64,000 bases of DNA, taken from NCBI GenBank assembly GCA_016874755.1, contig VGTH01000005.1, positions 51,547 through 115,546 of the forward strand, written 5' to 3'. Position 1 is the stretch's first letter. Each line of letters starts with the position of its first letter. The stretch is from Deltaproteobacteria bacterium. GTDB taxonomy: Bacteria; Desulfobacterota; Binatia; UBA9968. A model generated the notes under the pieces. The model made no database searches and was not told where the DNA came from. It saw only the letters and a list, made by a program, of their open reading frames with translations. Both the position numbers and the translations under genes were made by a program. Below, in pieces: positions 2,105-36,441 of the stretch.

Positions 2105-2270
2105 TGTGTGTGTCAAGGTTGTTGAAACTACCCAGATTTTTTTTCTAAATTTTTTTCTTGCAAACAATTTTGAAAAGGTTTATTAAACGGTCTCCGAATC
2201 GCTCTGGAAAAAATATTTTTGCTCCAATGCGCGAGTACAATGAAAAATTTCCGGCGGTTTTTTTTTCAGT
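2105..2270. promoter_or_regulatory. AT-rich tract in the hemL-dnaA intergenic region (candidate DNA-unwinding element and dnaA promoter)
   Basis: Runs of A/T (ttttttttctaaatttttttcttg, aaaaaatattttt, tttttttttc) in an otherwise 60% GC genome, directly upstream of the DnaA-box cluster. Confidence 0.5.
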
Positions 2271-2375
2271 TCCTTGCCAGCACGGCGTCTCTCGCTGAAA
2301 GCCACGCCCCTAGGCCGTGCCTCTGGCATGTGATGACTCGCCCCAGGTTTCAGCAACAGGAAGTCCAATGAGTGG

Positions 2376-2407
2376 TTGTCCACAACTGTGGATAACGTTG
2401 TGGATAA
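2376..2407. promoter_or_regulatory. DnaA-box cluster upstream of dnaA (oriC or autoregulatory sites)
   Basis: ttgtccaca (2376-2384, 1 mismatch), tgtggataa (2387-2395) and tgtggataa (2399-2407). The latter two are perfect reverse complements of TTATCCACA. Confidence 0.8.
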
Positions 2408-2442
2408 CTTTTTACTTATTTTCACTCGATCGGTAAGAAGCT

Positions 2443-3783
2443 ATGGTTGAGTTGTGGCAACAAGCGCTGGCTAAGCTGAAAGAGAAACTTGGGAAGCAAA
2501 GCTTCGATACATGGATCAGACCTACCTCTTTCGTTTCACTCAATAAAACTGAATTACGAATTGCGGTTCCTAGCAAGCTCCATCGCGACTGGATCACCGA
2601 GCATTTCCTCGCACAGATCGAAGAAGTGATTGGCACTCTCTGCGGCCAAACTACTGCGGTCACTTTTGAAATTGATCCGGAGACCGTCGAGAAGCAAATC
2701 GCTAGTGAACGGACACTGCGCAAAGAGGATCGCGAAAAGCCACCTGTGCAAACGCCGCATCGAGTTAACAATCTTTCGGCCCGTTATACGTTCGATAGTT
2801 TCGTTGTCGGCGCAAGCAACCAGTTTGCCCATGCGGCTTCGCTTGCAGTAGCGAACAAGCCTGGGCTCCATTATAACCCGCTCTTTATCTATGGCGGCGT
2901 TGGCCTGGGCAAGACCCACCTCGTCAATGCCATTGGCAATCAAGCAGCCAATCACAATGGCCAACTGAAGGTTCTCTACCTGAGCTCAGAGTCGTTCATG
3001 AATGAGCTGATTGGCTCGCTCAGGCGCGACAAGATGGACGAATTCAAAACAAAGTTTCGTAATGTCGATGTTTTGATTCTCGACGACGTTCAGTTCATCG
3101 CCGGTAAGGAACGTACCCAAGAAGAGTTCTTTCACACCTTTAACTCTCTTTACGATGCCCATAAGCAAATCGTTTTGACGTCGGATAAATTTCCCAAGGA
3201 AATCCCCGGCCTGGAAGATCGGCTACGCAACCGCTTCGAGTGGGGTTTGATCGCTGACATTCAACCTCCTGACGTGGAGACCCGGATTGCGATCTTGCAA
3301 AAGAAAGCCGTCGAACTCAATGTCCAACTGCCACAGGAGATCGGCATTTTTCTCGCCAGCAACATCAGCTCAAATGTCCGCGAGCTCGAAGGCGGCCTCA
3401 CTCGGTTATCGGCTTTCTCATCGATGACGAAGGCCGCGCTCACCATTGACCTGGCCAAAGAGGTGCTGCGCAATATCTTGAGAGATGCACGGCCGGAAGT
3501 GACGGTCGAAGGGATTCAAAAGGCGATCTGCGATTATTACAACGTCAAAATCGGCGAATTGAAAGCTAAACGAAGAACGCAAAACATCGCGCTGCCACGG
3601 CAAGTTGCAATGTATCTCTGCCGCAAACACACCGATACCTCTTTTCCTGCCATCGGCGCCAAATTCGGCGGGCGCGACCACTCCACCGTGATCCACGCAT
3701 CCAAAACCATCGAGCAGCGCATCAAAGACGACCCGCAGATGCAGATCACCATCGAAAAGCTTGAGCGCACTCTAAAGAAATAG
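2443..3783 (+). CDS. dnaA: chromosomal replication initiator protein DnaA
   Basis: MVELWQQALAKLKEKLGKQSFDTWIRP N-terminus, Walker A GGVGLGKTHL, box VII and a C-terminal DnaA-box-binding domain. 446 aa. Confidence 0.97.
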   Translation: MVELWQQALAKLKEKLGKQSFDTWIRPTSFVSLNKTELRIAVPSKLHRDWITEHFLAQIEEVIGTLCGQTTAVTFEIDPETVEKQIASERTLRKEDREKPPVQTPHRVNNLSARYTFDSFVVGASNQFAHAASLAVANKPGLHYNPLFIYGGVGLGKTHLVNAIGNQAANHNGQLKVLYLSSESFMNELIGSLRRDKMDEFKTKFRNVDVLILDDVQFIAGKERTQEEFFHTFNSLYDAHKQIVLTSDKFPKEIPGLEDRLRNRFEWGLIADIQPPDVETRIAILQKKAVELNVQLPQEIGIFLASNISSNVRELEGGLTRLSAFSSMTKAALTIDLAKEVLRNILRDARPEVTVEGIQKAICDYYNVKIGELKAKRRTQNIALPRQVAMYLCRKHTDTSFPAIGAKFGGRDHSTVIHASKTIEQRIKDDPQMQITIEKLERTLKK

Positions 3784-3801
3784 ATTGTTAATAAGCTGTG
3801 A

Positions 3802-3836
3802 TTATCCACTGCATGACTGTGGATAGTTGTGGACAA
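3802..3836. promoter_or_regulatory. second DnaA-box cluster in the dnaA-dnaN spacer
   Basis: ttatccact (3802-3810), tgtggatag (3818-3826) and tgtggacaa (3828-3836), each one mismatch from the consensus. Followed by an AT-rich stretch at 3840-4000. Confidence 0.7.
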
Positions 3837-4010
3837 GAGTTTGGGTAATTTACATGGGCCGGTAAAACCGGTAATCAACCACTTAATTGATCACAAGCTA
3901 ACTCTTTTGAATGACTCAGTGTTTATTGGGTTCGTGCCTTATTAACAGCCCCTACTACAACTTCTTATTCAATTCTTATATAGAGAGGTAATAGGAGGGG
4001 AGTGAGCGAT

Positions 4011-5117
4011 ATGGAATTCAAGGCTAAGCGGGGCGATCTTCTTACCACACTTTATTGGACCCAGAGCATTGTCGAGCGACGCAACACAATGCCGATCTTA
4101 GCCAACGTGTTAATCGAGGCACATAAGGGTGAAGTGCGATTGACAGCCACTGATCTCGAAGTGGGTGTACGCGGCGGTGTTGAAGGCACGGTGAGCAAAG
4201 AAGGCACTGTCACGGTTAACGCTAAGAAACTCTACGAGATTATTCGCGAGGTACCCAACGACCAGGTGCAAATCAAGCGGTTGGAAAATGATTGGGTCGA
4301 AATTCGCAGCGGCAAATCGGTGTTCAAAATCGTCGGCATGGACGCGAAAGAGTTTCCGCAATTTCCTTCCTTCGATTCCAAAACGTTGGCAACAGTACCG
4401 GCGGCAACCCTGCGCGGCATGATCGAACGGACAATTTTTTCGGTTTCCACAGATGAAACGCGTTACAGTCTGAACGGCGTTTTCATTGAACAGGGGCAAG
4501 ACGGTAAGGCCAGAATGGTCGCCACCGACGGACATCGATTGGCTTACGAAGAGTGCGATATTGGCTCGTTGGGCATCACCAAAGGCCTCATACTACCGCG
4601 TAAGGGATTGGCGGAGCTGAAAAAGCTCATGGAAGACAGCGACGAAGGCGTTGTCTCCATCGGTTTTCAGGAGAATATGGCTCTGGTTGGCAAAGACCGC
4701 GTCGAGCTATTCATGCGGCTGATTGATGGCGACTTCCCCGACTACACCAAAGTCATTCCGCAGGGCAACCCCAACATCGCGAAAGTTGAGCACAGCGAGC
4801 TGCTGCAGGCGCTACGGCGGGTATCGATTCTTTCCAACGAGCGTTATAAGGGCATCAAGATGGAGTTTTCGGAGGACAAGGTTTCTTTGTCGGCGAGCAA
4901 CCCGGACTTGGGCGAAGCCGTGGAGGAAATAGAAGCCGATTATAAAGGGAAAGAGATCTCGATCGGCTTTAATGCGCGTTATTTACTCGATGTCTTGGCG
5001 GTTTTAGGCGGCGACGGCGATGTCGATATCGAGTTGAAAGACGAGCTTAGCCCTAGCGTGATCCGCAAAGCGATCCATCAAGGTTATCTTTACGTTTTGA
5101 TGCCGATGCGACTGTGA
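4011..5117 (+). CDS. dnaN: DNA polymerase III beta sliding clamp
   Basis: MEFKAKRGDLLTTLYWTQSIVERRNTMPILANVLIE and the three-domain beta-clamp architecture. ATG at 4011 follows the RBS aggagggg; the ORF track starts at GTG 4002. Confidence 0.95.
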   Translation: MEFKAKRGDLLTTLYWTQSIVERRNTMPILANVLIEAHKGEVRLTATDLEVGVRGGVEGTVSKEGTVTVNAKKLYEIIREVPNDQVQIKRLENDWVEIRSGKSVFKIVGMDAKEFPQFPSFDSKTLATVPAATLRGMIERTIFSVSTDETRYSLNGVFIEQGQDGKARMVATDGHRLAYEECDIGSLGITKGLILPRKGLAELKKLMEDSDEGVVSIGFQENMALVGKDRVELFMRLIDGDFPDYTKVIPQGNPNIAKVEHSELLQALRRVSILSNERYKGIKMEFSEDKVSLSASNPDLGEAVEEIEADYKGKEISIGFNARYLLDVLAVLGGDGDVDIELKDELSPSVIRKAIHQGYLYVLMPMRL

Positions 5118-5136
5118 TCCGCGCTTTGCGGTTCGG

Positions 5137-5168
5137 AATCTCAGATTTCAAATTTCAGATCTCAAAGA
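5137..5168. repeat. copy of the aatctcagatttcaaatttcagatctcaaa word repeat between dnaN and the ICL/PEPM gene
   Basis: Identical 28-nt core to 59880-59907. Confidence 0.6.
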
Positions 5169-5177
5169 AGACATCTG

Positions 5178-6041
5178 CTAGCTTTTATATTTCGCATCGA
5201 GAGCGTATTTTTCATTTAATCCGACGATCGCATTAAAATCGTCAAAGGCCATCAGGCGATCCAAGATCGCCAACGTCGAGCCGTCGCGCCGCAGGGTGGT
5301 GTAAACTTCGGTCAACGATTTCGCCACTGAATAGAGTGGCGCCAGCGGCCAGACGATTAGCTCAAAGCCCAAATCTTTCAGCTCATTGGGACCCATCAGC
5401 GGGGTTACGCCGCGTTCCAGCATGTTGGCCACCAGCGGGCCGGGCACCTGGCCTGCAATCTCGCGCATTTCTTCCTTCGATTCTGGCGCTTCGATGAAAA
5501 CTGCATCGGCACCAGCGCTTTTGAAAGCGATGCCACGATCGATCGTGTCTTTTAAGCCGAGCGCCTGGCGCGCGTCGGTGCGCGCAACGATGAAGAAATC
5601 GCTGTCGCCTTTGGCTTCGACGGCGGCTTTGAGCTTTTTCAACTGTTCGTCGATTGGAATAACCTGCTTGCCCTTCATGTGGCCGCAGCGTTTTGGCCAG
5701 ACCTGATCTTCAAGAAACATGCCGGCGGCACCGGCGCGGGTGAGATCTTGCACTGTGCGGATGACATTGATGGCGTTGCCGTAGCCGGTATCGGCGTCGA
5801 CAATGACCGGGGTTTCGACAACAGAACAAATCCGCTGTGCGGCTGCCACCACCTCGGTCTGGGTAAGGAGACCAAAGTCAGGTTCGCCGAGGAGCGTCGC
5901 CGATAGGCTGTAGCCGGTGATGAAGATGACTTCAAAACCGGCGCGGGCTGCGATCTTGGCGCTCAGGGCGTCATAGACGCCTGGCATGATGAGCTGGCCT
6001 TTAGTTTCTAAAGACTGGCGAATGAGGTTCCCTTTGCCCAT
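5178..6041 (-). CDS. isocitrate lyase/PEP mutase family protein (2-methylisocitrate lyase / carboxyvinyl-carboxyphosphonate phosphorylmutase-like)
   Basis: GVYDALSAKIAARAGFEVIFITGYSLSATLLGEPDFGLL...DADTGYG...KRCGH motifs of the ICL/PEPM superfamily. Confidence 0.8.
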   Translation of the reverse strand: MGKGNLIRQSLETKGQLIMPGVYDALSAKIAARAGFEVIFITGYSLSATLLGEPDFGLLTQTEVVAAAQRICSVVETPVIVDADTGYGNAINVIRTVQDLTRAGAAGMFLEDQVWPKRCGHMKGKQVIPIDEQLKKLKAAVEAKGDSDFFIVARTDARQALGLKDTIDRGIAFKSAGADAVFIEAPESKEEMREIAGQVPGPLVANMLERGVTPLMGPNELKDLGFELIVWPLAPLYSVAKSLTEVYTTLRRDGSTLAILDRLMAFDDFNAIVGLNEKYALDAKYKS

Positions 6042-6062
6042 AACCTCTCCAAGTTGGTTCGC

Positions 6063-6428
6063 CTAACGGCGCGGTCTGCCGCCGCGATTGGGCGAGCGGC
6101 TCGGCATGGGCTCAGGCTTTGGTGCAGAACGGAGCAGCTTTGCCGAACGCAAGCCCAAGACATCGGCGCCGTAGCGGGAAGAGTCTAGATGGTCATAGCG
6201 GGCTTTAATTTTTTGCCACACTTGATGTTTTTTGATCCGATCTTCTTTGGCTGCGCTGAGGTCCTCGAGATCGAGCACGACGTCGCCTTCATGGCCGCGC
6301 AGACTCATGTGCAAAGTAAATTGCGACCCCTCGCCCTCGCGCGCCGAATAGTCGATTTTCTTGTTGATGCTCCGAATAATGTCGCGCAACAAAAGTTCTT
6401 CTTCCTGATGGACGCCTTTTCCGAACAT
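6063..6428 (-). CDS. hypothetical protein, 121 aa, Arg/Pro-rich C-terminal tail
   Basis: ORF tightly packed between the PhtD-like gene and the ICL/PEPM gene on the same strand. No recognisable motif. Confidence 0.45.
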   Translation of the reverse strand: MFGKGVHQEEELLLRDIIRSINKKIDYSAREGEGSQFTLHMSLRGHEGDVVLDLEDLSAAKEDRIKKHQVWQKIKARYDHLDSSRYGADVLGLRSAKLLRSAPKPEPMPSRSPNRGGRPRR

Positions 6429-6511
6429 AGTCTCTTCCTCCTTGCGGCACGAGCACTAGGAATTGTCGATTAGAAATGTGGCAATCTACGCTAATAGGAG
6501 CGCAAGTTCAA

Positions 6512-7477
6512 TTACGAATGCGCTTCGGTCTGCACGAAAAGCTCTGCTAAGGCCATTTTTCGACCGATCAGACCCTGTTCCTGGGAGTATTGCATCAAAG
6601 TATCCAGCGCGCGCCGATTGACGTCGCCCAGGCCATAAACCCATGGATCCGGGCCGAGGATTTCCTCCTGCTCTTCAAGAAACGAGCGGAACCAGGCGAG
6701 CGGCACGATGCGCGGGTTTTCCATGCGCCTGTAGGCGGCTTTTTTTGACGCTTCGAAGGCTTGCATTAAGTTTACCGGTACCCAGGGATATTTGTCGACG
6801 ACTTCCTGACGGATCGCGGTGGTGTGCATGATCGGGAAAAAGCCGGTGCGCTTGTAATAGTCCATCTCCAGTTCACGATAATTGGGAAAAAGTCGGGTCA
6901 CCCGTTCGTCTTTGTCGAGAATGGGCTGGATCAATTCGGGATGAACCAGCGCGTCGATTTCGCCCTCGACGAGCATTTTTTCAATGCTCTTTCCCTTCGG
7001 GATACGCTGGATTTTTAAGTCCGCCGGCGGTGTCCAGTCGACCTCTTCGTCATCCTGTTTGTACCAGTCCAAGCTGCGGTGCGGCACGCCGTGCTCGTGT
7101 TCGAGGATGCCGCGAATCCACAGGTTGGCAGTGGCTTGAAAGTTTCGCAGGCCGACTTTTTTGCCGATGAGGTCCGTCGGTTTGGTGATGCCTTTGTTGG
7201 CGTTTAAGAATATGAAACCGTGGCGGAATCGGCGGTGGAGAAAAACCGGTATCGCCGTGTAGGGCTGGCCAGTGTATTTTGCCATCAAATAATTCGACAT
7301 CGATAGCTCGGCGACGTCAAACTCGTTGTTGCGCAGCATGCGCCAGTGGCGCACGTCGGAATTCATGTCCGTCAGGACCGTCAGCTCGATGCCGTCCGGT
7401 TGGACCGTACCTTCCTTCAAAGCACGGATGCTCTCATAGTCGCCGGTGGCCAGGGTGAGGTGGATTTTTTTGCTCAT
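6512..7477 (-). CDS. 4,5-dihydroxyphthalate decarboxylase (PhtD)-like protein, NMT1 fold, cytoplasmic
   Basis: 321 aa without a signal peptide. Paralog of the gene at 60473..61465, sharing FPIMHT, ILGPDPW.YGL and EQGLI blocks. Family assignment is from memory of PhtD-like proteins. Confidence 0.65.
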   Translation of the reverse strand: MSKKIHLTLATGDYESIRALKEGTVQPDGIELTVLTDMNSDVRHWRMLRNNEFDVAELSMSNYLMAKYTGQPYTAIPVFLHRRFRHGFIFLNANKGITKPTDLIGKKVGLRNFQATANLWIRGILEHEHGVPHRSLDWYKQDDEEVDWTPPADLKIQRIPKGKSIEKMLVEGEIDALVHPELIQPILDKDERVTRLFPNYRELEMDYYKRTGFFPIMHTTAIRQEVVDKYPWVPVNLMQAFEASKKAAYRRMENPRIVPLAWFRSFLEEQEEILGPDPWVYGLGDVNRRALDTLMQYSQEQGLIGRKMALAELFVQTEAHS

Positions 7478-7589
7478 GGGGCCTAATTAGCACGCCCGTC
7501 GAATGTTGCCAACCAGTTGATTTCACAGTTTGAATTGCTACCTTGCGACTTCGCGACTTCGTGCGTAGCGCACAACTGAAGGAGTCGGG

Positions 7590-7815
7590 ATGAACAAATC
7601 GTCGCTCAAGATCGCATTGCTGATAGCCCTCCTGCTAGGGGCTGGCCGAGCAAGCAGGGCTATTTAAGAAGCACGGCTTGGATGTAGAGCTGCTGCACAT
7701 CGCGTCGAGCTCGCGGGGTATCCAAGCGATCCTCGCTGGCGAGATCGCCTTTTCCTACATGGATGGCGCAAATCTTGCGGTTTGTCGCAGAGCTAGAGAA
7801 GCAGGGGTTTTTTAA
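7590..7815 (+). pseudogene. decayed NMT1/SsuA-like substrate-binding protein gene (signal peptide fragment plus frameshifted internal fragment)
   Basis: ATG 7590 gives MNKSSLKIALLIALLLGAGRASRAI then a stop. A +1-shifted frame from 7666 gives KKHGLDVELLHIASSSRGIQAILAGEIAFSYMDG..., which matches the LKKHNIDLEVILITGGPVAMQALLA block of the intact paralog at 53218..54165. Confidence 0.5.
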
Positions 7816-7906
7816 GGGCGCGAAATAAGAAAGGGCGACCAACCGGTCGCCCCTGCGAATCCCATATCGGCGTAGATGGGTTAGCGAAGCGTAACCCAAC
7901 GTTCTA

Positions 7907-8617
7907 CTAGCGAAGTTTTTTCGCGCGCCGTACGAAATAATCCCACATCGATCCTAGACGATGCGGTGTGTAGATCTGCTCGTACTTGAGCACCGCTTCT
8001 TCGTCGCTGCTCCAGGACGGCTCGCCGGAGGCGGTGGCGATAAGTTGGATGCGCGCCGCCTTCTCCAAGAAAATCGCGTAGAGCGTCGCGACCTCGATGG
8101 TCGGGCCCACGACGGTTGAGCCGTGGTTCTTCATCAGCACACCGCGACAGCTGCCGAGGCTTTTTGCCACTTCCACACCTAACTCCTTGGTGCGAATGAG
8201 TTGGGTTGTGAGATCGAACAACGGCAGGCCGTCGTGAAAGATGCTGCCCTCGTGACTGACGGGGCGCAACCGCTGGCGAAGCGAGCCGAACGCCGTCGCG
8301 TAGGGCGGATGCGAATGCACCACGCAGTTGACATCCGGCCGCGCCAGCATGATCTCGGTGTGAATGAAAACTTCCGAGTGGCGCTCGTATTTGCCTTCGA
8401 GTTTTTTGCCGTCTTCCATGTCGACGACGATGATATGCTGCGGGCGGATTTCTTCGAAGCCGAAGCTATGCGGCTTCATGAGAATCTTTTTCTCACCGGG
8501 TATGCGAACCGAGACGTGGCCGAGAATGTTGTCCCAGTGACCCTCGTTGGCGAGGATGTTGCACGAGTAAGCGAGTTTTTCTTTGAGTTCTTTGATTGTA
8601 TTGGCTTTGTTGGCCAT
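7907..8617 (-). CDS. class II aldolase/adducin family protein
   Basis: NCVVHSHPPYATAF and MKNHGSTVVGPTIEVA are typical of L-fuculose-phosphate aldolase-like class II aldolases. Confidence 0.85.
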   Translation of the reverse strand: MANKANTIKELKEKLAYSCNILANEGHWDNILGHVSVRIPGEKKILMKPHSFGFEEIRPQHIIVVDMEDGKKLEGKYERHSEVFIHTEIMLARPDVNCVVHSHPPYATAFGSLRQRLRPVSHEGSIFHDGLPLFDLTTQLIRTKELGVEVAKSLGSCRGVLMKNHGSTVVGPTIEVATLYAIFLEKAARIQLIATASGEPSWSSDEEAVLKYEQIYTPHRLGSMWDYFVRRAKKLR

Positions 8618-8633
8618 GGTTTCTCCCTAGTGC

Positions 8634-8703
8634 GAGTCGAGGATAGAAGATCGAGGATTGAGGATCGAATGCTATCCTCCATCTTCTATCCTCTATCCTG
8701 AGC
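8634..8703. repeat. large imperfect hairpin with reiterated GAGGAT words between the CoA-ligase and aldolase genes
   Basis: gaggatagaagatcgaggat ...15 nt... atcctccatcttctatcctc is a 19/20 inverted repeat; gaggat occurs four times. Confidence 0.6.
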
Positions 8704-10261
8704 TTTTGCTTCTTAAGCGGAATCTCTGAATCTTACCTGTAACCGTCTTCGGCAGGTCGTCGACGAACTCAACCCAACGCGGATACTTATAGGGCTGGAG
8801 TTTCGCTTTGACGTGGTTTTGCAATTCAATGCGCAACTGGTCGCTGGCTTTAAACTCGCTCTTGAGCAGCACGAAAGCTTTCGGCTTGAGCAGGCCGTCG
8901 GAGTCGGTGTCGCCGATGACGCCGGACTCCAAAACTGCCGGATGTTCCATCAAGATGTTTTCAATTTCAATCGGCGAGACCCACAGGCCGCCGACCTTCA
9001 TCATGTCGTCGGAGCGGCCGCAGTACCAATAGTAGCCCTCGGCATCTCGGTAGTAGGTGTCGCCGGTCTTGAGCCACTCGCCCTGCATCATGCGTTTGGT
9101 CTGCTCGTGTTTGTTCCAATAATAAACCGCGTTGGCGTCGCCTTTGACCAGCAAGTTGCCGGTTTCACCCACCGGGACTTCGCGACCGTCGTCGTCGACG
9201 ATCTTGGCTTCGAAGGCTGGCGTCACTTCGCCGCTGCTGCCGGCTTTGGCTCGGCCCGGTCGGTTGGCCAAGAAATCGTGGGTCGCTTCGGTGGAGCCGA
9301 CGACGTCGAGTAATTCCAAGCCGGTTTTTTCTTTCCATTGGTGGAATAGAGCCGGCGGCAGCGGTTCGCCGGAGGACAGGCAGATGCGCAGCGAGCTCAT
9401 GTCGTATTTTTTTTTGATGCGGAGAAACCTGGCAAACAGCGTTGGTACTGAAAAAAAGAAGGTCGGTTTATACTTGTCGATGACCTGAAGAATTTTTTCC
9501 GGATCGGGCTTTTCCGGCCAAAGTACTGTCGAAGCACCGAAGCGGAAGGGGAAGTACAAAGAATTCCCCAAGCCGTAGGAGAAAAACATCTTTGATGCCG
9601 AAAAGCACAGGTCGTTCTCGTTCATGCTCAACACTGGCTTCACAAACAGATCGCTGATGTTGATCATGTCGTGCTGCAGGTGCACGGCACCCTTCGGGCT
9701 GCCGGTGCTGCCGGACGTATAGCCCCAGAAGCAGACATCGTCTTTGGTGGTCTTCGCGGCTTCGAGCTTGTCCGAGCTTTGGGCGATCAGCTTCTCATAC
9801 GATAGCGCCTTACCCATGGGCGTGCCGACGACGACGATGTGTTTTAAGAATGGCGTGTTGTCCCAGATCTTCTCGATCTCAGGCAGCGTCGACTCGTGCA
9901 CGACAATGGCGCGAGCGCGGCTGTCGTTGATCAGATATTCGTAATCCTTGGCGAACATCCAAGGATTGGTCGGCACGGCGACGGCGCCGATCTTGATGGC
10001 GCCGAAGAAGGTGTAAGCAAATTCCGGCGAATCCGGCAGAATCACCAGCACGCGGTTTTCGATCTCGATGCCAAGATCTTTCAGCGCATTGCCGGTGCGG
10101 TTAACGTTGGCAAAAACTTGTTGATAGGTGATCTTCTGGTCTTGGTAGTAGATGGCGACTTTGCCGCCACGCCCCTGTTTGATGTTTTCATCAACAAAGG
10201 TCGTGGCGGCGTTGTAGATGTCGGGTAAATCGACGTTCATCCTAATGATTTCAGATTCCAA
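8693..10261 (-). CDS. benzoate-CoA ligase family AMP-forming acyl-CoA synthetase
   Basis: YTSGSTGSPKGAVH, GEWLKTGDTYYRD and the C-terminus PYKYPRWVEFVDDLPKTVTGKIQRFRLR closely resemble BadA/BclA-type ligases. True start could be the internal MNVDLPDIYN. Confidence 0.9.
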   Translation of the reverse strand: MESEIIRMNVDLPDIYNAATTFVDENIKQGRGGKVAIYYQDQKITYQQVFANVNRTGNALKDLGIEIENRVLVILPDSPEFAYTFFGAIKIGAVAVPTNPWMFAKDYEYLINDSRARAIVVHESTLPEIEKIWDNTPFLKHIVVVGTPMGKALSYEKLIAQSSDKLEAAKTTKDDVCFWGYTSGSTGSPKGAVHLQHDMINISDLFVKPVLSMNENDLCFSASKMFFSYGLGNSLYFPFRFGASTVLWPEKPDPEKILQVIDKYKPTFFFSVPTLFARFLRIKKKYDMSSLRICLSSGEPLPPALFHQWKEKTGLELLDVVGSTEATHDFLANRPGRAKAGSSGEVTPAFEAKIVDDDGREVPVGETGNLLVKGDANAVYYWNKHEQTKRMMQGEWLKTGDTYYRDAEGYYWYCGRSDDMMKVGGLWVSPIEIENILMEHPAVLESGVIGDTDSDGLLKPKAFVLLKSEFKASDQLRIELQNHVKAKLQPYKYPRWVEFVDDLPKTVTGKIQRFRLRSKSSG

Positions 10262-10295
10262 ATTATCTGGAATCTTGAATCTGTAATTTGGAATG
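10245..10295. repeat. related AT-rich palindromic word repeat between the ALDH and CoA-ligase genes
   Basis: gatttcagattccaaattatctggaatcttgaatctgtaatttggaat contains nested inverted repeats (ttccaaatta / taatttggaa; cagattc / gaatctg). Confidence 0.55.
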
Positions 10296-10308
10296 GCGCC
10301 GCAGGCGC

Positions 10309-24494: not shown

Positions 24495-24510
24495 AGGCCG
24501 AGGAGTCGCC

Positions 24511-25885: not shown

Positions 25886-25921
25886 GCTGCGTGGTGAAAT
25901 GGGATTTATTAGTTCTCTCGC

Positions 25922-27759: not shown

Positions 27760-27789
27760 TGGAAAATGGAAATTATTCGGAGGGTGATC

Positions 27790-29322
27790 ATGAGTCGTGA
27801 TTTTAGCCGGCGATCATTTTTGAAAGCGGGCGCAACGGCGGCAGCCGCAATCGCGGCGTGGCCGCGCTATGTTTTGGATGCCAGCGCGGCGTCGCGCGAC
27901 CGGGTGACGATTTTTCACTCGAGCGTGGCCGACTCGATCCATCCCTACAATCATAGCTCCAGCCCGATCTACGGCAACTGGCAGCATGTCATCGAGCCGC
28001 TGCTTGAATACAGCGTTGACCGAAAGGACTTTGTCGGCGTGCTCGTCGAGTCTTGGCAGTTCCAGGGCAACAAGTGGGTCTTCAAGCTGCGCAAGGGTGT
28101 GAAGTTTCACAATGGCGCGACCTTCACAGCGAAGGACGTGGTCTTCTCCGTGGAAAAAATGCGCGATGAAAAGGGCGGCAGCCTGCAGGCGCCCAATTTC
28201 AAAGACGTCGCCGAGATTCAAACCCCGGACGATTACACCGTGGTTTTCGTTACCAAGCAGCCCATGGCGGTATTTTTAGACCGGCTCGATAACCGCTTCG
28301 TGTTGAGCAAAGAAGCCGGCGATAAATTTGGCGATAAGATTTATGAAAACCTTATCGGCACCGGCCCGTATAAATTTGTCAGCTACCAGCGCGGCGGCAA
28401 CCTGGTGTTCACCCGTAACGACGACTACTGGGGCGGACGAGCCAACATCAAAGAAGTCGTCTTCAAGAAAGTAACCGAAGACGCGGCGCGCTTGGCAGCG
28501 CTGGAGTCGGGCCAAGCGGACTTCATCAACAATGTGCCGGACCATGAAGTGGCGCGCTTGAAAAAACATCCGCGCGTGCGCATCGACCAGGTCGAAGGAC
28601 AGCGGATGTTTTTCTTTGCCTTCAACATGGCGTTTAAGCCATGGGACAACAAACTGGTGCGCCAGGCGGCCAACTATAGCGTCGATGCGCCGGCGATTAT
28701 TCGAAACATCTTCGACGGTATCGGCTATCCGTGCAACGGGCCGGTGGGCGCCAACGTTTTCGGTGCCGACCCGAAACATAAGCGCTATCCGTACGATCCC
28801 AAGAAGGCCAAAGAGTTGCTGGCTCAAGCGGGCTTTCCTAACGGCTGCGATATCCAACTTTACTACTCCGCGGGGCGCTATCCCAAAGACCGCGAAATCT
28901 GCCAAGTGGTGGCCGCGCAAATGGTCAAGAGCGGTTTTCGCGTCGAGCTGATCTCGCAGGAATGGGCGCTATTTTGGGACAAGCAGGGAGTCAACGGTGG
29001 CCGGCTGCCTTTTTACTACATTGGTCGCGGCGGCTTGACCGACGCCGATACGCTGTATGATCAATACTTCCGCACCGGGACAACCAAGAGGACCAACTAC
29101 AGCAACCCTGAGTACGACAAGCTCATCGAAGAGCAGCAGCGCACCTCCGATTCAAAAAAGCGCACGCAGATCCTGCAGCAGGCTGGCAAACATATCATGG
29201 ACGAAGCCTTGTTCATCCCGCTGTTTAACCTCGCGGACATCTACGGTGTCGCGAGGAATTTGGAGTGGAAGAAGCGCCCGGATGAAAAGATCAAGGCCTG
29301 GGACATGAAGATCAAGGCATAG
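27790..29322 (+). CDS. ABC transporter substrate-binding protein family 5, second paralog
   Basis: MSRDFSRRSFLKAGATAAAAIAAW Tat leader, preceded by ggaggg. Confidence 0.88.
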   Translation: MSRDFSRRSFLKAGATAAAAIAAWPRYVLDASAASRDRVTIFHSSVADSIHPYNHSSSPIYGNWQHVIEPLLEYSVDRKDFVGVLVESWQFQGNKWVFKLRKGVKFHNGATFTAKDVVFSVEKMRDEKGGSLQAPNFKDVAEIQTPDDYTVVFVTKQPMAVFLDRLDNRFVLSKEAGDKFGDKIYENLIGTGPYKFVSYQRGGNLVFTRNDDYWGGRANIKEVVFKKVTEDAARLAALESGQADFINNVPDHEVARLKKHPRVRIDQVEGQRMFFFAFNMAFKPWDNKLVRQAANYSVDAPAIIRNIFDGIGYPCNGPVGANVFGADPKHKRYPYDPKKAKELLAQAGFPNGCDIQLYYSAGRYPKDREICQVVAAQMVKSGFRVELISQEWALFWDKQGVNGGRLPFYYIGRGGLTDADTLYDQYFRTGTTKRTNYSNPEYDKLIEEQQRTSDSKKRTQILQQAGKHIMDEALFIPLFNLADIYGVARNLEWKKRPDEKIKAWDMKIKA

Positions 29323-29354
29323 AGAGTCCGAGCCCGCGTTGTTGACGGTATGAA

Positions 29355-29549
29355 GGCGATCGAGGTGGAACTCTGGAGGAGCGAAGGCAACAGGGCATCG
29401 CGTAAACGCCGCGATGTAGGGGCGACCGGCGGTCGCCCTCTTTTGCGACCTAGCGATGCAAGAATCGAAGATGAATTCCAAGCAGCGGCAAACGAAACGA
29501 AAGTTTCGCGCTGATGCCTTCGCTCCTCCAGAGTTCCACCTCGATCGCC
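29355..29549. repeat. MITE-like element: perfect 35-bp terminal inverted repeats around a 125-bp core
   Basis: ggcgatcgaggtggaactctggaggagcgaaggca (29355-29389) is the exact reverse complement of 29515-29549. The core contains a GTAGGGGCG terminator hairpin (29416-29448). Confidence 0.75.
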
Positions 29550-29647
29550 ACAGTATCGTTGGTTTCCCAAGAACCTGAATAGCCCGGGCTAAGTCTGGGG
29601 GCGGAGGGTGCGCAACGACAGCAGCAGATTTCCCAATAGGAGCATTG

Positions 29648-31177
29648 ATGAGTTCAAGAGGTAACGGAATCAATCGCAGAGATTTTCTCAAGAACAGCGC
29701 CATCGCGGGTCTTGGTGCACTCGCCAGTTCAGGATTGGCCAAGTTCAGCTATGCGGCCTCGAAGGACCGCCTCACGGCGCTGAGCAGCATCGGTCTCGAC
29801 ACCCTGCACCCCTATGCGCACAGCTCGAGCCCACAATACGGCATCTGGCACAACATGCTCGAGCCGTTGGTAGAAGTCGACTACGCCAAGAAAGATTACT
29901 TCGGCGTCCTCGCCGAGTCATGGCAATTTCAGGGCAAGAAGTGGGTGATCAAGCTGCGCAAGGGCGTCCGCTTTCACGATACCAGCCCGTTCACCGCTAA
30001 AGACGTCGTCTACTCGATCAACCGATTGAAAAACGACAAAGAGAGCATGCAAAAAGATAACTTTCGCGACTTTGTCGAGGTCCAGGCGGCGGATGATCAT
30101 ACCGTGATCATAACCACTGAGCAGCCGGTGGCGGTGATGATGGACCGCTTGCAGAACCGCTTCATCCTCTCGAAATCCGGCACCGAAGCGCAAGGTAGTC
30201 AGGGCGAGTTAAAGCCCGTCGGTACCGGCCCGTACAAGTTTCAAAGCTGGCAGCGCGACGGCAATCTCGTGATGGTGCGCAACGACAGCTACTGGGGAAC
30301 GAAGCCGTCGGTCCGAGAGATCGTCGTGCGCCGTGTGAAAGAGGACTCCGCTCGGGTCGCGGGCTTGCTCGCCGGGCAAGGCGATGTGACCAACAATGTG
30401 CCGGTGGAAGAGCTGTCGCGCTTCGATAACCATCCGCGCATTCGCGCGGAGAAAGTCGAAGGCGTGCGCATGTATTTTCTCGCCATGAACGTGACGCACA
30501 AGCCGTTTGATAACAAATTAGTCCGCCAGGCGATCAACTACGCGGTCGATCCGTCGGCGATCATCAAACATATTTACGAAGGCAACGGCTACGTGATGAA
30601 CGGCCCGCTCGGCTCCAACGTCATCGGCTTCGATCCCAAGATCAAGCGCTATCCAGTAGACATCAATAAAGGCAAGGAGCTGCTCACCAAAGCCGGCTAT
30701 CCCAACGGCTTGGACATAAAGCTTTATTTTTCACCCGATCGCTATCCCAAAGCCAAAGAGGTCTGCCAGGTGATCGCCGACCAATTAGCCAAGATCGGCA
30801 TCAAAACCGAATTGGTCTCGCAGGAGTTCGTCATCTTCTGGGGCAAAGAAGGCGTCAACGGCGGCAAGCTCGGCTTTTACTACGTCGGCCGCCCGGCGGC
30901 GGACGCCGATACGGTTTACGATCAGTACTATCGCTCCGGCGTCAGCCCGCGCATTCAATACAAGAATCCGGAGTTCGACAAGCTGATCGATGAAGAGCAA
31001 AGGATCGGCGACCCGAAAAAGCGCATCGCACTACTGCAACAGGCAGGGCGTATTCTCATGGAAGACGTGCCGTTCTGCCCGCTCTACACATTGGCAGAAA
31101 TCTACGGCGTCGCGCGCAACGTGAAATGGAAAGCGCGGCCGGATGAAAAGCTGCTTTACGCAGATATGAAGATTTGA
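29648..31177 (+). CDS. ABC transporter substrate-binding protein family 5, third paralog
   Basis: MSSRGNGINRRDFLKNSAIAGLGALASSG Tat leader, preceded by RBS aggag. Confidence 0.88.
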   Translation: MSSRGNGINRRDFLKNSAIAGLGALASSGLAKFSYAASKDRLTALSSIGLDTLHPYAHSSSPQYGIWHNMLEPLVEVDYAKKDYFGVLAESWQFQGKKWVIKLRKGVRFHDTSPFTAKDVVYSINRLKNDKESMQKDNFRDFVEVQAADDHTVIITTEQPVAVMMDRLQNRFILSKSGTEAQGSQGELKPVGTGPYKFQSWQRDGNLVMVRNDSYWGTKPSVREIVVRRVKEDSARVAGLLAGQGDVTNNVPVEELSRFDNHPRIRAEKVEGVRMYFLAMNVTHKPFDNKLVRQAINYAVDPSAIIKHIYEGNGYVMNGPLGSNVIGFDPKIKRYPVDINKGKELLTKAGYPNGLDIKLYFSPDRYPKAKEVCQVIADQLAKIGIKTELVSQEFVIFWGKEGVNGGKLGFYYVGRPAADADTVYDQYYRSGVSPRIQYKNPEFDKLIDEEQRIGDPKKRIALLQQAGRILMEDVPFCPLYTLAEIYGVARNVKWKARPDEKLLYADMKI

Positions 31178-31207: not shown

Positions 31208-31326
31208 ACGCGCTCGTAGGATGGGTTGAGCGTCAGCGATACCCATCACCCAACCGCGTCTCGAAAGAGAAGCATGACATTGGGGTCAACACGGCGTAGG
31301 GGCGCAATTCATTGCGCCCGCCCGAC

Positions 31327-32211
31327 TCAGTTCGTCACCGCCGTGCCCGTCAGCATCTGAATAATTCGCTCCAAGTCGTCCGTCGAGTAGTATTCGATTT
31401 CAATCTTGCCTTTTTTCGATCTTGCCTTCGGCAGCAAGCGCACCTTGGTGCCGAGGCGGCGCTGAATATTTTCAACTAAAGATCGTAAATCCGGATCGAG
31501 CTGACCCGGTTCGCGCCGGCGCCGCCGGCCGGTTTTCAAGTGGCGCACGAGCTTTTCCGTTTCGCGCGTCGACAAGCCTTTACTGATAACTTCCCGCGCA
31601 GCGGAAACGATCAACAAGTCTGCCTGCAGGCCAAGTAGCGCCCGCGCTTGGCCGGCGGGAAGATTACCGGCGGCTACTTCATGTTGTACTTCGCTCGGCA
31701 GTGAGAGCAACCGAATCGAGTTGGCGATCGCCGGACGGCTCTTGCCAACTTTGTCGGCCATCTCTTCGTTGCTCCAGCTAAACTCTTGCTGCAGTCGTCG
31801 GTAGCCGTTGGCTTCCTCGATGGGGTTCAAGTCTTCGCGCTGAAGATTTTCGACTAGCGCCAGCTGCAGCGCCTCTTGATCGCTAGCTTCACGCACGACC
31901 ACCGGAACCTCGGTGAGGCCGGCCTTCATGGCGGCGCGCCAGCGGCGCTCACCGGCGATCAGCTCGTAGTCGCCGTCCTTGGGCCGGACGACAAGCGGCT
32001 GAATGATCCCCTGATTGCGGATCGAGGCCGCGAGCTCGTCGATTTTCGCCTCATCGAACGTGCGGCGTGGCTGAAACGGGCTCGGCGTGATGCGCTCAAC
32101 GCCGACTTCCGTGGTGGCGGATTCCCCGTGAGGTTCAACCAGCGGCTCACTAGCGCTCGGGATCAGCGCGCTCAGACCTCTACCAAGTCCCATTTTTTTC
32201 GGCACTGACAT
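31327..32211 (-). CDS. parB: chromosome partitioning protein ParB (Spo0J)
   Basis: [11 protein letters not shown] ParB box, [24 protein letters not shown]. Confidence 0.92.
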
Positions 32212-32983
32212 TTTCTTCTTCAGCTCCACGATTAATTAGTTCTCTGGCTAAATCTTGATAATCCTGCGCTCCGGTTGACGTGGGATCGTACAAGCAAATG
32301 GGTTTGCCGTAACTTGGACTTTCGCTCAGACGCACATTGCGGCGGATGATGGTTTGAAAAATCTTGTCGGGAAAATGGCTGCGAATCTCCTCGACGACTT
32401 GATGTGAGAGGCGGTTGCGGCTGTCGAACATAGTGATGACGATGCCCTCGAGCGTTAGAGCCGGATTCAAATTTTTCTGCACCAGGCTGACGGTTTCTAA
32501 AATCGCAGTGAGTCCCTCAAGGGCGTAGTATTCACTTTGGATCGGCACGATAAGAGAGTTGGCGGCTGTCAACGCATTGAGCGTAATCAGTCCAAGTGAC
32601 GGTGGACAATCAAGCAGCACGTAGTCATAGTGATCGCGCACAGTGGTCAGCGCGTCTTTGAGGCGAAACTCGCGCCGCTCAACGCTTACCAGTTCGATCT
32701 CAGCGCCGACGAGGTTTTTACTCGCTGGAATCATTAGTAGCTGAGGAATCTCGGTTTGGCAGAGGACTTCGCCGATGAAGCGCGTGCCCGAAAGCACTTC
32801 ATACAGGCTCCCTTGCAAGGCGGAACGGTCGATGCCGAGGCCCGTGGTGCTGTTGCCTTGGGGATCGATGTCGACCAATAGAGTTCGTTTGCCTTCAGTC
32901 GCCAGCGCCGCGGCGAGATTAATCGAAGTCGTGGTCTTGCCCACGCCCCCCTTCTGATTCGCGATCGCCAGAACGACACTCAT
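32180..32983 (-). CDS. parA: chromosome partitioning ATPase ParA (Soj)
   Basis: [28 protein letters not shown] deviant Walker A. Confidence 0.95.
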
Positions 32984-33073: not shown

Positions 33074-33089
33074 CGTTTCACGTGAAACA
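33074..33089. promoter_or_regulatory. parS centromere site
   Basis: cGTTTCACGTGAAACa matches the TGTTTCACGTGAAACA consensus across the full 14-bp palindromic core. Confidence 0.85.
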
Positions 33090-33107: not shown

Positions 33108-34988
33108 TTAAGCGCTCTTGCGCCGGGTCAAATGCACTGATAGCAGCGATATCGCCGCGGGTGTAACGCCCGAAATACGTGAGGCTTGGCCCAGTGAGCG
33201 TGGCCGGATGCGGGTGAGTTTCTCGCACACCTCTCGCGATAGCCCGCTGATCTGCGAGTAGTCGAAATCTTCTGGAACTCGCACATGCTCCATTTTTTGG
33301 AATCGCTGCACGATTTCCACTTGGCGGTCGACGTAGCCTTCGTATTTTGTGCTGAGCTCGACCTGAGCATCGGCGTCAGCTGAGAAGCTCGGCATGTCCG
33401 GAGCCAGGCGGCGGAGCTGATTCAGGCTAACTTCGGGTCGGCGCAGTAGCTGCGCCAGTGAGCAATGGTTCTTCAGTGGCGCTGTGCCGAGCTCCGTAAG
33501 CAGCGCATTGACTTCGCTGGTCGGAGTCACCTGCCGACTTTGCAGGAATGCATTGAGCTGGTCGATCGCATTTTTCTTATCTACGACCCGGATATTTCGT
33601 TTGCTATTCGCAAGGCCGATCCGATGACCTATTTCAGTGAGTCGCAAGTCGGCATTGTCCTCGCGCAACAATAGGCGATACTCGGCTCGTGAAGTAAACA
33701 TTCTATAGGGTTCGCTATCCGTGCCCTTGGTCACCAAGTCGTCGACTAGCACGCCGAGGTAAGCTTGGTCGCGGGAGAAGACGATGGGCTCTTGGCCGCG
33801 CAGGCTCAAGACAGCGTTTATCGCTGCAATCAATCCCTGAGCCGCTGCTTCCTCGTAGCCGGTGGTTCCGTTGATCTGTCCCGCATGGTAAAGCCCGCGC
33901 ACCAGCTTGGTTTCGAGCGACGGATGGAGCTGGGTCGGCTCGACGTAGTCGTATTCGATGGCGTAGCCCGGACGCATGATCTCGGCGTTTTCGAGTCCTT
34001 CGATCGAATGAACCATCTCGAGTTGCACATCTAGGGGTAGACTTGTCGACAAACCATTGGGATATACCTCGACAGTGTCGAGTCCCTCCGGCTCTAAGAA
34101 TATCTGGTGGCGGCTCTTATCGGCGAAGCGATGGATCTTGTCTTCGATCGACGGGCAGTAGCGCGGCCCACGGCTCTTGATGATTCCGGAATACATGGGC
34201 GAGCGATGCAGTGCGGCCCGTATCACTTCGTGGGTGCGTTCATTGGTATAAGTTATGTGGCAAGGCACCTGGCGCTGGGTGACACCGTTGCTCAAGAAAG
34301 AAAATGGCATCGGCGGATCGTCGCCGGGTTGGACTTGGAGATTTGAATAATCGATAGTGCGCGCATCGAGGCGTGGGCAGGTGCCGGTCTTGAGACGACC
34401 TACTTTGAAGCCGAGCGCAACCAGTGACTCGCTCAAACCTTGCACAGCGAAGTCGCCGGCACGACCAGCGGAATAGTTAGTCTCCCCGATATGGATCAGC
34501 CCTTTAAGAAAAGTACCAGTGGTGAGGATGACGCGTCGGCCGTAGAACTTCTCACCGATCTGAGTTTCGACGCCCTTGACTTCGCCGTTCTCTACTAGCA
34601 GTTTCTCTGCACTACCTTGGCGCAGGGTTAGTCCAGGGCAGTTTTCCAAAACACGCTTCATGCGCAACCTGTAAAGAGCCTTATCAGCCTGCGCTCTTGA
34701 GGCACGGACCGCTGGGCCTTTGCGGGTATTGAGCATGCGAAACTGAATACCGGTTTCGTCAATTGCCAAACCCATCTCGCCGCCCAGGGCGTCAATCTCT
34801 TTCACCAGGTGGCCTTTTCCAATGCCACCGATGGCTGGGTTGCAGGACATCTGGCCAATGTGGTCCAGATTCAAAGTAAGCATCAGCGCGTCGCAGCCCA
34901 TGCGAGACACAGCCAAGCAGGCTTCGATGCCGGCATGGCCGGCGCCGACGACTATCACCTCGAAAATCTTGTTCTGTCTCGTGCTCAT
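33108..34988 (-). CDS. mnmG: tRNA uridine 5-carboxymethylaminomethyl modification enzyme MnmG (GidA)
   Basis: [21 protein letters not shown] motif, 626 aa, MnmG C-terminal domain. Confidence 0.96.
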
Positions 34989-35004
34989 TGTTTCACGTGA
35001 AACG
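34989..35004. promoter_or_regulatory. second parS site
   Basis: TGTTTCACGTGAAACg, 15 of 16 to consensus, overlapping the mnmG start codon region. Confidence 0.85.
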
Positions 35005-35064
35005 GGACCCGGTGTGGGTGCAATTAATGCATTTTCACCAGGAAAGTTTCTATATTTATTTTAG

Positions 35065-36441
35065 TTACTTACCTATACAAAAGCTGCTGAACACATGGTC
35101 CAAAACAGCCTCATTGTCGATCACGCCGACGATCTCTTCCAAGCCCTGGCGTGCTTCGTTGAGATCAACGGCAATGAATTCGGGCGCATGGCCGAGTGAC
35201 AATGTCGCTGCGGCCCGGAGCAACGCTTGCTCGCTGCGAACGAGTGCGGCCTTGTGGCGTAGATTGGTTACGATCACCGGCGGTTCGCCAGCCGTCGAAA
35301 AGATTAGATCATGGAGAGTAAGCTTTAGGTTGTCTAGTCCGTCACCCGTCTTTGCCGATACCACTGTGACCTGGTCGATGTCGAACTCATGCGCGAGACT
35401 TTCAGGACTTATGATCTGCGGCATGTCCGCTTTGTTGATGACCGCCAATATTTTTTTCCCATTGCAGGATTGGATCAGCCCGATGTCATCGCCGGTCAGC
35501 GTAGTCGACCCGTCCAGCACGAGCATCACGGCGTCAGCTTGCTGCATATGGCGGCGCGACAGGTTCACTCCGATCTGCTCGACTTGGTCATCGGTTTCGC
35601 GTATTCCCGCAGTATCCCAAAGGACCACGCGCACGCCGGCTAGATTTAGCGATTCCTCGACAACGTCGCGGGTGGTACCCGGCACCGGGGTTACGATAAC
35701 CCGCTCCTCACCGAGCAATGCGTTCAAGAGGCTTGACTTACCGACGTTGGGGCGGCCGCAAAGGCACACGCGCACGCCTTCGCGCAGCAGGCGTCCATAT
35801 TCATAACTATTTGATATTATTACTATTTTTTCAAGTATGCCGGATAGTTTCTGGGCCAATTCTGAGGCCTGCAAGAGCTCAATATCCTCGTCCGGAAAAT
35901 CGATGGCGGCTTCCACTTGAGCGAGAATGTCGAGCAGCTCCTCGCGCAGTTCGTTAACCCATTTCGACAAGCCGCCGCTCATCTGCTCAAGGGCGACCGC
36001 GGCGCTTTTGTCGGTGCGTGCTTGAATCAACTCCAGCACCGCTTCGGCCTGGGCCAAGTCCATTCGACCGTTGAGAAAGCCACGCTTGGTGAATTCGCCC
36101 GGCTCGGCTTGTCGCGCCCCATGAGCCAAGACTAGCTGTAAGACCTGGCGAACAACGAATGCGCCGCCGTGGCAATGAATTTCAACGACGTCTTCACCGG
36201 TGTAGCTGTGCGGCTTGCGCATCACCGTGAGCAGCACCTGGTCCAACACTTTTTCCGAACGTGGATCGCGGATCTTGCCATAATAAAGTTTGTGCGAGTC
36301 GAGCGCGGCACCGTTGCGTTCTTTGCGCACGAAGATATCGCGAGCGATGCGCTCGGCATCGGGCCCGCTGATACGCACGATCGCCACACCGCCCTCACCC
36401 GGCGGCGTCGCGATGGCGGCTATCGTGTCTTCCTTATACAT
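35065..36441 (-). CDS. mnmE: tRNA modification GTPase MnmE (TrmE)
   Basis: MYKEDTIAAIATPPGEGGVAIVRISG, G-domain GRPNVGKSSLLNAL, C-terminal CIGK. Confidence 0.96.
   Translation of the reverse strand: MYKEDTIAAIATPPGEGGVAIVRISGPDAERIARDIFVRKERNGAALDSHKLYYGKIRDPRSEKVLDQVLLTVMRKPHSYTGEDVVEIHCHGGAFVVRQVLQLVLAHGARQAEPGEFTKRGFLNGRMDLAQAEAVLELIQARTDKSAAVALEQMSGGLSKWVNELREELLDILAQVEAAIDFPDEDIELLQASELAQKLSGILEKIVIISNSYEYGRLLREGVRVCLCGRPNVGKSSLLNALLGEERVIVTPVPGTTRDVVEESLNLAGVRVVLWDTAGIRETDDQVEQIGVNLSRRHMQQADAVMLVLDGSTTLTGDDIGLIQSCNGKKILAVINKADMPQIISPESLAHEFDIDQVTVVSAKTGDGLDNLKLTLHDLIFSTAGEPPVIVTNLRHKAALVRSEQALLRAAATLSLGHAPEFIAVDLNEARQGLEEIVGVIDNEAVLDHVFSSFCIGK

Follow-up and report, generated by a model that had tools for sequence, protein, structure and literature searches.

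A 64-kb stretch of contig VGTH01000005.1 (positions 51,547 to 115,546; hereafter the window), from a Deltaproteobacteria bacterium placed by GTDB in Binatia, raises the question of how the genes of a chromosomal origin and those of its segregation system came to point at each other. We identified genes by an open reading frame (ORF) listing and Pfam scans, with NCBIfam for some, and found that dnaA–dnaN on the plus strand and parB–parA–mnmG–mnmE on the minus strand converge over metabolic and transporter genes, as a first-pass annotation of this DNA had described. The stop codons of dnaN and parB are 26.2 kb apart. We consider it likely that the window is the origin-proximal region of the main chromosome of a member of Candidatus Binatia, with a bipartite origin of replication (oriC) and an intact ParABS system, reshaped by stepwise, lineage-specific reshuffling with no foreign insert. 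The features that bear most directly on this are as follows.

2098–2442, no strand: spacer 5′ of dnaA; contains an AT-rich tract and a DnaA-box cluster (2376–2407)
2443–3783, plus: dnaA (Pfam DnaA_N, Bac_DnaA, Bac_DnaA_C)
3784–4001, no strand: dnaA–dnaN spacer, with boxes, trios and AT-rich DNA that reaches the ribosome-binding site of dnaN
4002–5117, plus: dnaN (beta clamp), with all three DNA_pol3_beta domains
31327–32229, minus: parB (Pfam ParB_N, HTH_ParB, ParB_C)
32180–32983, minus: parA (Pfam AAA_31, CbiA and ParA families)
33074–33089, no strand: parS, 5′ of parA, at the site where rsmG ends in outgroups
33108–34988, minus: mnmG (gidA; Pfam GIDA, GIDA_C_1st, SAM_GIDA_C)
34989–35004, no strand: parS, between mnmE and mnmG
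35065–36441, minus: mnmE (trmE; Pfam TrmE_N, MnmE_helical, MMR_HSR1)

We searched the window for the DnaA box TTATCCACA with at most one mismatch. The total of 10 matches is near the number expected by chance (about 6.5), and 6 of the 10 fall into two clusters of three, at 2376–2407 and 3802–3836, which flank dnaA on both sides as previously claimed; no further cluster was found within the 64 kb at this threshold. The 5′ boxes are 36–67 bp from the dnaA start, and a box pair is found 68–80 bp 5′ of dnaA in four relatives with DnaA identities of 71–76% (L004, L005, L006 and L008). The spacer at 2098–2442 is likely to be the upstream half of a bipartite oriC, a site of dnaA autoregulation, or both.

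The dnaA–dnaN spacer holds a candidate unwinding element, in which the box-like TTATTAACA (3939–3947) is followed by GCCC (3948–3951), by the trios CTA CTA CAA CTT CTT ATT (CTACTACAACTTCTTATT; 3952–3969) and then by an AT-rich run of about 74% A+T. This box/GC/trio stretch is by far the best-conserved block in a five-way alignment of the spacer (alignment A1), with the consensus DnaA box, GC(C/A)C, CTA CTA (C/T)(A/T)A C…, followed by AT-rich DNA; in L004 the trio-adjacent box is a perfect TTATCCACA. The basal unwinding system (BUS), described for Bacillus subtilis and predicted in most bacterial origins, combines a DnaA box with three or more NAN trios (consensus 3′-GAT-5′), the two being separated by an often GC-rich spacer no longer than 16 bp (PMC8287927). 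The window element at 3939–3969 has this composition: a box, a 4-nt spacer and trios, bordered by AT-rich DNA.

GC skew was computed on 71.6 kb, the window being joined to a 7.6-kb left extension from L001, a Logan contig that is 100% identical to window positions 1–4828. The cumulative skew has a local minimum at 3753, the end of dnaA. From there the cumulative curve climbs steadily to about 34 kb; mean skew is −0.019 to the left of the minimum and +0.037 to its right, over 4–34 kb. Within these 71.6 kb, the switch proposed as a check on the first-pass annotation lies at dnaA. Together, the skew minimum, the conserved box pair and the box/GC/trio element place the origin at dnaA, and we infer a bipartite, dnaA-flanking oriC of B. 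subtilis type with its unwinding element predicted just 5′ of dnaN. Replication would start at this Bacillus-like origin, and DnaA would open the duplex in the dnaA–dnaN spacer, through the second box cluster, the box, the GC spacer, the trios and the AT-rich stretch. Shared with the B. subtilis type are the box clusters on both sides of dnaA, dnaN directly after it, and a spacer with a box, a 4-nt GC spacer, NAN trios (3′-GAT GAT GTT GAA GAA TAA-5′ on the bottom strand of the window) and an AT-rich run. The window differs in having far fewer boxes (3 + 3), a degenerate trio-adjacent box, and neither rpmH–rnpA 5′ nor recF–gyrB 3′; its function as an origin is a prediction from sequence.

ParA and ParB are encoded together with full Pfam domain sets (a Walker-type ATPase; N-terminal, helix-turn-helix and dimerisation domains). 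The parB start is probably about 18 nt inside the listed ORF, cluster members being 292–294 amino acids (aa) long. We searched for the parS consensus TGTTTCACGTGAAACA, a 16-bp palindrome with a chance expectation in the window of 0.19 even at three mismatches, and detected two sites with one mismatch each: CGTTTCACGTGAAACA at 33074–33089, in the 124-bp gap between parA and mnmG, and TGTTTCACGTGAAACG at 34989–35004, between mnmG and mnmE. The sites flank mnmG, as had been reported, and both are 29–31 kb from the dnaA–dnaN spacer. Their positions are kept in most of 15 related loci scanned, 12 of which have two sites; in L011 and L112, which have rsmG, the second parS is between rsmG and parA. 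As far as sequence can tell, this is a chromosomal ParABS of standard type. ParB would load at the two palindromes, which precede mnmG and parA, and with oriC at dnaA the mnmE–mnmG–parA–parB unit would lie 27–31 kb into the right replichore, transcribed towards the origin. Of some 46 genes to the right of dnaA, only about 25 point in the direction of replication, so a head-on par unit is unremarkable in this genome. The earlier statement that the cis-elements of replication and segregation are retained stands, given the conservation of the box pair, the box/GC/trio element and parS.

We assign the region to the main chromosome because housekeeping genes (msrA, ribBA, panE, mnmE and mnmG) lie in the window and atp genes just outside it: left of dnaA comes an aminotransferase and then, beyond the window, atpI–atpB–atpE, as seen on L001. 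Among hundreds of DnaA relatives at about 70–86% identity, those that bear a name are mostly labelled Candidatus Binatia. Around the two converging units the window is laid out as follows.

787–2097, minus: class III aminotransferase (Pfam PF00202), left neighbour of dnaA
5178–6041, minus: PEP_mutase/ICL gene (PEPM; Pfam), directly 3′ of dnaN and convergent with it
5178–13066, mixed content: dnaN-proximal metabolic block (Pfam/NCBIfam), with PEPM/ICL, a 121-aa conserved protein, an NMT1-like binding protein, an NMT1_2 remnant, a class II aldolase, a CoA-ligase-type AMP-binding enzyme, an aldehyde dehydrogenase (Aldedh) and Amidohydro_2
13024–21665, mixed content: middle block, with a second PEPM/ICL, TctC, a bicupin-like 290-aa protein, a frameshifted 439-aa gene, a TAXI-TRAP transporter (fused DctM, DUF1850, NMT1_3) and msrA
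22017–31177, plus: parB-proximal block, with an alpha/beta hydrolase, three SBP_5, a class III aminotransferase and two Opp/Dpp-type permeases
36619–41492, both strands: rest of the conserved par block, with a 545-aa secreted protein (minus), an MR_MLE enolase-superfamily protein (minus), a cupin (minus) and a divergent luciferase-like monooxygenase (plus)

After PEPM/ICL, about 24 further genes on mixed strands fill the interval up to 31177. PEPM/ICL occupies the place of recF after dnaN, as first read, and neither recF nor gyrB has a Pfam match among the ORFs of the 64-kb window, the remaining ORFs included. The order atpE–atpB–atpI–aminotransferase, dnaA–dnaN, PEPM–120-aa protein–NMT1-like is common to L004–L009 (DnaA identity 71–76%), and the shared state indicates that the absence of recF after dnaN is old and clade-wide. 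The aldolase, the CoA-ligase-type enzyme and the aldehyde dehydrogenase follow in L004, L005 and L006, L008 and L009 diverge after NMT1_2, and the remaining differences are small indels. Beside dnaN, the dnaN-proximal block is collinear in L004, L005, L006 and L099 and partly so in L008 and L009.

At the other end, parB faces SBP_5 only in the window and in L092–L094, with L096 continuing the path through an overlap with L092. These sisters come from independent sequencing runs and have ParB identities over 90%; L092, L094 and L096 are collinear with the parB-proximal block back to the alpha/beta hydrolase at 78–86% nucleotide identity. The L092/L096 overlap covers 7.2 kb at 100% in the direction from parB to Aldedh, and L096 runs on through msrA, TAXI-TRAP and the 439-aa gene to Aldedh. 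L099, a contig also assigned an 86%-identical DnaA, runs from Aldedh back to PEPM and dnaN. The genes from TAXI-TRAP through the 439-aa gene to Aldedh are present in both L096 and L099, and the segment at 11.8–16 kb is absent from both. We conclude from the junction in independent assemblies and from the bridging contigs that the convergent layout is real and shared by the nearest relatives. The parB-proximal block is absent 3′ of parB in L010, L090, L091, L102–L110 and L182; in L010, L090, L091, L102–L106, L110 and L182 parB faces a convergent DsbH-like (DUF255) gene, with unrelated genes beyond. On the far side, the par block 5′ of mnmE (luciferase-like, cupin, MR_MLE) is the same in L090, L091, L092, L103 and L110, and partly in L011.

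We also confirmed the absence of rsmG between mnmG and parA. The 124-bp gap holds only parS, leaving no space for the gene, and tblastn with a relative's RsmG gave no match in the window. The mnmG–parA junction lacks rsmG in L010, L090, L091, L092–L095, L103, L106, L109, L110 and L182, and rsmG is present in L011 (Pfam GidB, 1e-43), L112, L012, L013 and L113. In the window's family it was removed cleanly between mnmG and parS, and its loss from this site appears to be old and family-wide (ParB identity 74–88%). Ordered by ParB identity to the window, the par loci have the following arrangements.

Outgroups L011 and L112, ParB 57–63%: mnmE–mnmG–rsmG–parA–parB–atpF–F′–H–A–G–D
Outgroups L012 and L113, ParB about 50%: the same, with dnaA divergent 3 kb 5′ of mnmE (the textbook layout)
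Family-level relatives L010, L090, L182, L091 and L102–L110, ParB 74–88%: luciferase-like / cupin–MR_MLE–(unknown)–mnmE–mnmG–parA–parB, without rsmG; parB faces DsbH
Window and nearest sisters L092–L096, ParB over 90%: parB faces SBP_5

These states suggest a history in three steps. An ancestor would have had mnmE–mnmG–rsmG–parA–parB–atpF…D, as the outgroups do. The family would then have lost rsmG precisely between mnmG and parS, together with the atp neighbours, after which parB would have faced the DsbH-like gene; at that stage dnaA–dnaN would already have had atpIBE and the aminotransferase to its left and PEPM with its following genes to its right. In the narrow lineage of the window, an inversion or translocation with a breakpoint just 3′ of parB would finally have joined the par block to the SBP_5 end of the dnaN neighbourhood. 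By parsimony, the loss of rsmG and the separation from atp and dnaA would be old and the parB junction younger. It is the order and mechanism of these events that we infer, the gene identities, motifs, conservation, synteny and local skew being observed. The order in the window is thus derived relative to the outgroups, as the first-pass annotation proposed, although most of the differences that it listed (loss of rsmG, no recF after dnaN) are old and clade-wide and the parB/SBP_5 junction alone is young.

Linkage in the relatives fits such a rearrangement weakly. Among the matches listed, DnaA was not seen on a 43.7-kb contig reaching 38 kb beyond parB, nor ParB on a 123-kb contig reaching about 76 kb beyond dnaA; no long contig was common to the best 120 DnaA and best 120 ParB matches, and long-read contigs are frameshift-prone. 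Per-gene and third-position GC skews showed that third positions follow the coding strand and that, over whole genes, the skew of the par block is about 0 on average. No two relatives have the same flank beyond the luciferase-like gene. Either an inversion or a translocation would fit these results. A homologue of the TRAP permease on a 2.86-Mb contig (L100/L101) was set aside as probably a paralogue: its context is unrelated, with no dnaA or parB.

Several points weigh against the origin and the history proposed here. The window's own trio-adjacent box has two mismatches; the skew is nearly flat (+0.007) beyond about 34 kb and is weak evidence by itself, its minimum being a local one computed on 71.6 kb; besides the window, no single relative contig spans dnaN and parB, and the bridge is made of two different relatives; the polarity of events follows parsimony on a handful of loci; and the missing dnaA–parB linkage in family-level relatives rests on best-120 lists and frameshift-prone long-read contigs. 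oriC is far from dnaA in some phyla, and the dnaA locus might not be the active origin, with oriC situated outside the window or closer to the par genes, for example, and the boxes serving only to autoregulate dnaA and dnaN. The flat skew after 34 kb, a local reversal at 34–42 kb and the position of the 5′ boxes, which is typical of autoregulation, would agree with this. We nevertheless consider it unlikely, as the local skew minimum coincides with the end of dnaA and the slope changes sign there, the sole DnaA-box clusters in 64 kb are those at dnaA, the dnaA–dnaN spacer carries a conserved box/GC/trio/AT-rich module, and parS sites are usually origin-proximal. That the layout is a chimeric join is scarcely credible. 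The window does come from a contig of a metagenome-assembled genome (MAG), and several long relative contigs end shortly 3′ of parB, but the same parB/SBP_5 junction occurs in Logan assemblies of other runs (L092, L093, L094), the perfect L092/L096 overlap leads on to TAXI-TRAP and Aldedh, L099 joins Aldedh to dnaN, and L001 and L002 are 100% identical to the left end of the window.

The first-pass annotation had taken the 26 kb between dnaN and parB for a catabolic insert, that is, a horizontally acquired island splitting a canonical origin cluster. The interval is indeed rich in accessory-looking catabolic and transporter genes and has no recognisable transcriptional regulator, as stated (between dnaN and parB, ORFs of 100 aa or more gave no match to transcription-factor families in Pfam or NCBIfam, and the leftover small ORFs look spurious), and its content varies among relatives through indels of NMT1_2, adh_short, DUF6282, SBP_bac_1 and the 11.8–16 kb segment. 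The marks of a genomic island (integrase, tRNA or repeat borders, deviant composition, absence from relatives) are nonetheless lacking. Pfam matches in the interval include no integrase or transposase families; no tRNA was found in the block and no direct repeats bound it, its junctions having only short hairpins resembling repetitive extragenic palindromes (REP); an Rfam scan of the window gave no match; and G+C is 0.54–0.60 throughout, the interval matching the rest of the window. The dnaN–PEPM junction and the genes after it are syntenic, with 8–13 kb at the same place beside dnaN in relatives of 71–76% DnaA identity. An insertion, moreover, cannot make convergent clusters out of the divergent canonical layout, which is seen in 24 of 30 diverse loci whose dnaA and parB lie no more than 10 kb apart. 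We regard the island as already largely refuted and very improbable; the 26 kb would be ordinary, fast-turning-over metabolic and transporter genes of Binatia. 'Catabolic' is a fair label for them, and Amidohydro_2, a class II aldolase/decarboxylase-like protein and the bicupin no more than hint at the aromatic catabolism also claimed. It is likewise improbable that the parB/SBP_5 junction is ancestral and parB/DsbH derived. The polarity comes from parsimony and not from a rooted tree, and the L090/L182 lineage (ParB 88%) and the L092 lineage (93%) are at similar nucleotide distances from the window; however, parB/DsbH occurs in at least 9 loci spanning 74–88% ParB identity and parB/SBP_5 only in the window and its nearest sisters, and the outgroups have neither junction but atpF.

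How unusual is the arrangement? The first-pass annotation ascribed the canonical tandem to most bacteria, which is overstated, since rsmG and/or mnmG precede parA in 44 of 93 diverse ParB loci with enough upstream sequence. Among 40 diverse loci with mnmG and parA, rsmG is present in 35, and 3 of the 5 without it belong to the window's family. Besides the 24 divergent cases, the 30 loci in which at most 10 kb separate dnaA from parB comprise 5 with dnaA in tandem upstream and one with a weak (31%-identity) dnaA-like match downstream on the same strand; none is convergent. The arrangement in the window is a minority state, and the canonical order is itself far from universal.

Compared with the canonical gidAB–parAB cluster, the window lacks rsmG between mnmG and parA, and the unit is convergent with dnaA–dnaN at a distance of 26 kb instead of divergent from it. 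Like canonical origin regions it has the same gene families, a contiguous mnmG–parA–parB, nearby parS, and dnaA directly followed by dnaN; L011 and L112 even keep atp genes after parB. Unlike them it lacks rsmG (gidB), recF, gyrB, rpmH and rnpA, has no DnaA boxes 5′ of mnmG, has atpIBE on the other side of dnaA, and has a par unit that points towards dnaA and not away. With its outgroups (L012 and L113, labelled 'uncultured delta proteobacterium', and L011 and L112) it shares mnmE–mnmG–(rsmG)–parA–parB and parS before mnmG, and with L011 and L112 only also parS before parA; L011 shares cupin–MR_MLE 5′ of mnmE. The outgroups differ in retaining rsmG and atpF…D after parB and, in L012 and L113, a divergent dnaA 3 kb 5′ of mnmE.

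Further observations concern the neighbouring genes. This clade has a divided ATP synthase operon: in every dnaA locus, atpI–atpB–atpE lie beyond the aminotransferase on the left of dnaA (L001 6459–8310), and atpF–F′–H–A–G–D follow parB in the outgroups (L011 11266–16672; L112; L113) and are absent from the window. The 121-aa protein (6063–6428, minus), with a basic Arg/Pro-rich tail, always lies between PEPM/ICL and the NMT1-like gene beside dnaN and is 67–87% identical in relatives. The NMT1_2 remnant (7642–7776, in the region 7478–7906) comprises 45 codons 84% identical to the relatives' NMT1_2 binding-protein gene, which L004, L005, L006, L008 and L099 carry at that position and which is mostly deleted in the window genome. 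The 290-aa protein (15082–15954, plus) has two His-rich cupin-like motifs (a bicupin) with a faint Cupin_2 match (E = 0.029), and lies in the 11.8–16 kb segment missing from L096 and L099. The 439-aa secreted hydrolase-like protein (16084–17405, plus), with a GFSGGG motif, is intact in L096 and L099 and split in the window by a 1-nt frameshift at about 16389, making it either a pseudogene or a MAG sequencing error. Directly 5′ of mnmE, the 545-aa protein (36619–38256, minus) has a signal peptide and two C-terminal Ser/Thr/Ala-rich repeats; its counterparts have 367–550 aa, L090 lacks it, and L011 has a DnaJ-domain protein in its place. A divergent YidC was considered for it and rejected, because it has a signal peptide, a globular part, the Ser/Thr/Ala-rich repeats and no 60KD_IMP match, and because some relatives lack the gene or have a shorter one. 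Searches of Pfam, NCBIfam and the PDB sequences with the 121-, 439-, 545- and 290-aa proteins returned nothing but the faint cupin match.

The Opp/Dpp-like cluster at 22965–31177 has three paralogous SBP_5, two permeases and an embedded class III aminotransferase, and no ABC ATPase gene, as in the sisters L092 and L096. Between two of its SBP_5 genes is a 42-nt inverted repeat (29355–29396 and 29508–29549; 95% complementary, 111 nt apart) with no Rfam match, which could be a structured element or one resembling a miniature inverted-repeat transposable element. Another inverted repeat, of 33 nt (39753–39785 and 40390–40422; 94% complementary), brackets the cupin gene exactly. A motif of about 31 nt, GAATCTCAGATTTCAAATTTCAGATCTCAAA, occurs right after dnaN (5136–5180) and at 59534–59564 and 59870–59900, and short REP-like GC hairpins occur in several spacers, for example at 31291–31319 and 54961–54989.

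The locus is a derived synteny variant of known systems and involves no new mechanism. It provides a sequence-level prediction of oriC and parS sites for the uncultured phylum Binatota, of modest practical value, which can help to orient genomes, analyse replichores and estimate growth rates from read coverage, and it illustrates a textbook origin gene order dismantled stepwise within a lineage while every cis-element was kept. It also flags a possible clade-wide absence of rsmG. A bolder proposal, which we hold to be doubtful, is that the whole Binatia family lost rsmG from the genome altogether, with no relocation, and that a recent rearrangement turned ParABS and mnmEG head-on about 27 kb from oriC without loss of parS or par genes. 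Loss of gidB/rsmG raises streptomycin tolerance in several bacteria. If the proposal holds, 16S rRNA in this family would lack m7G527, the state that gives streptomycin tolerance elsewhere, and such a rearrangement would offer a natural test of how much gene order in the origin region matters.

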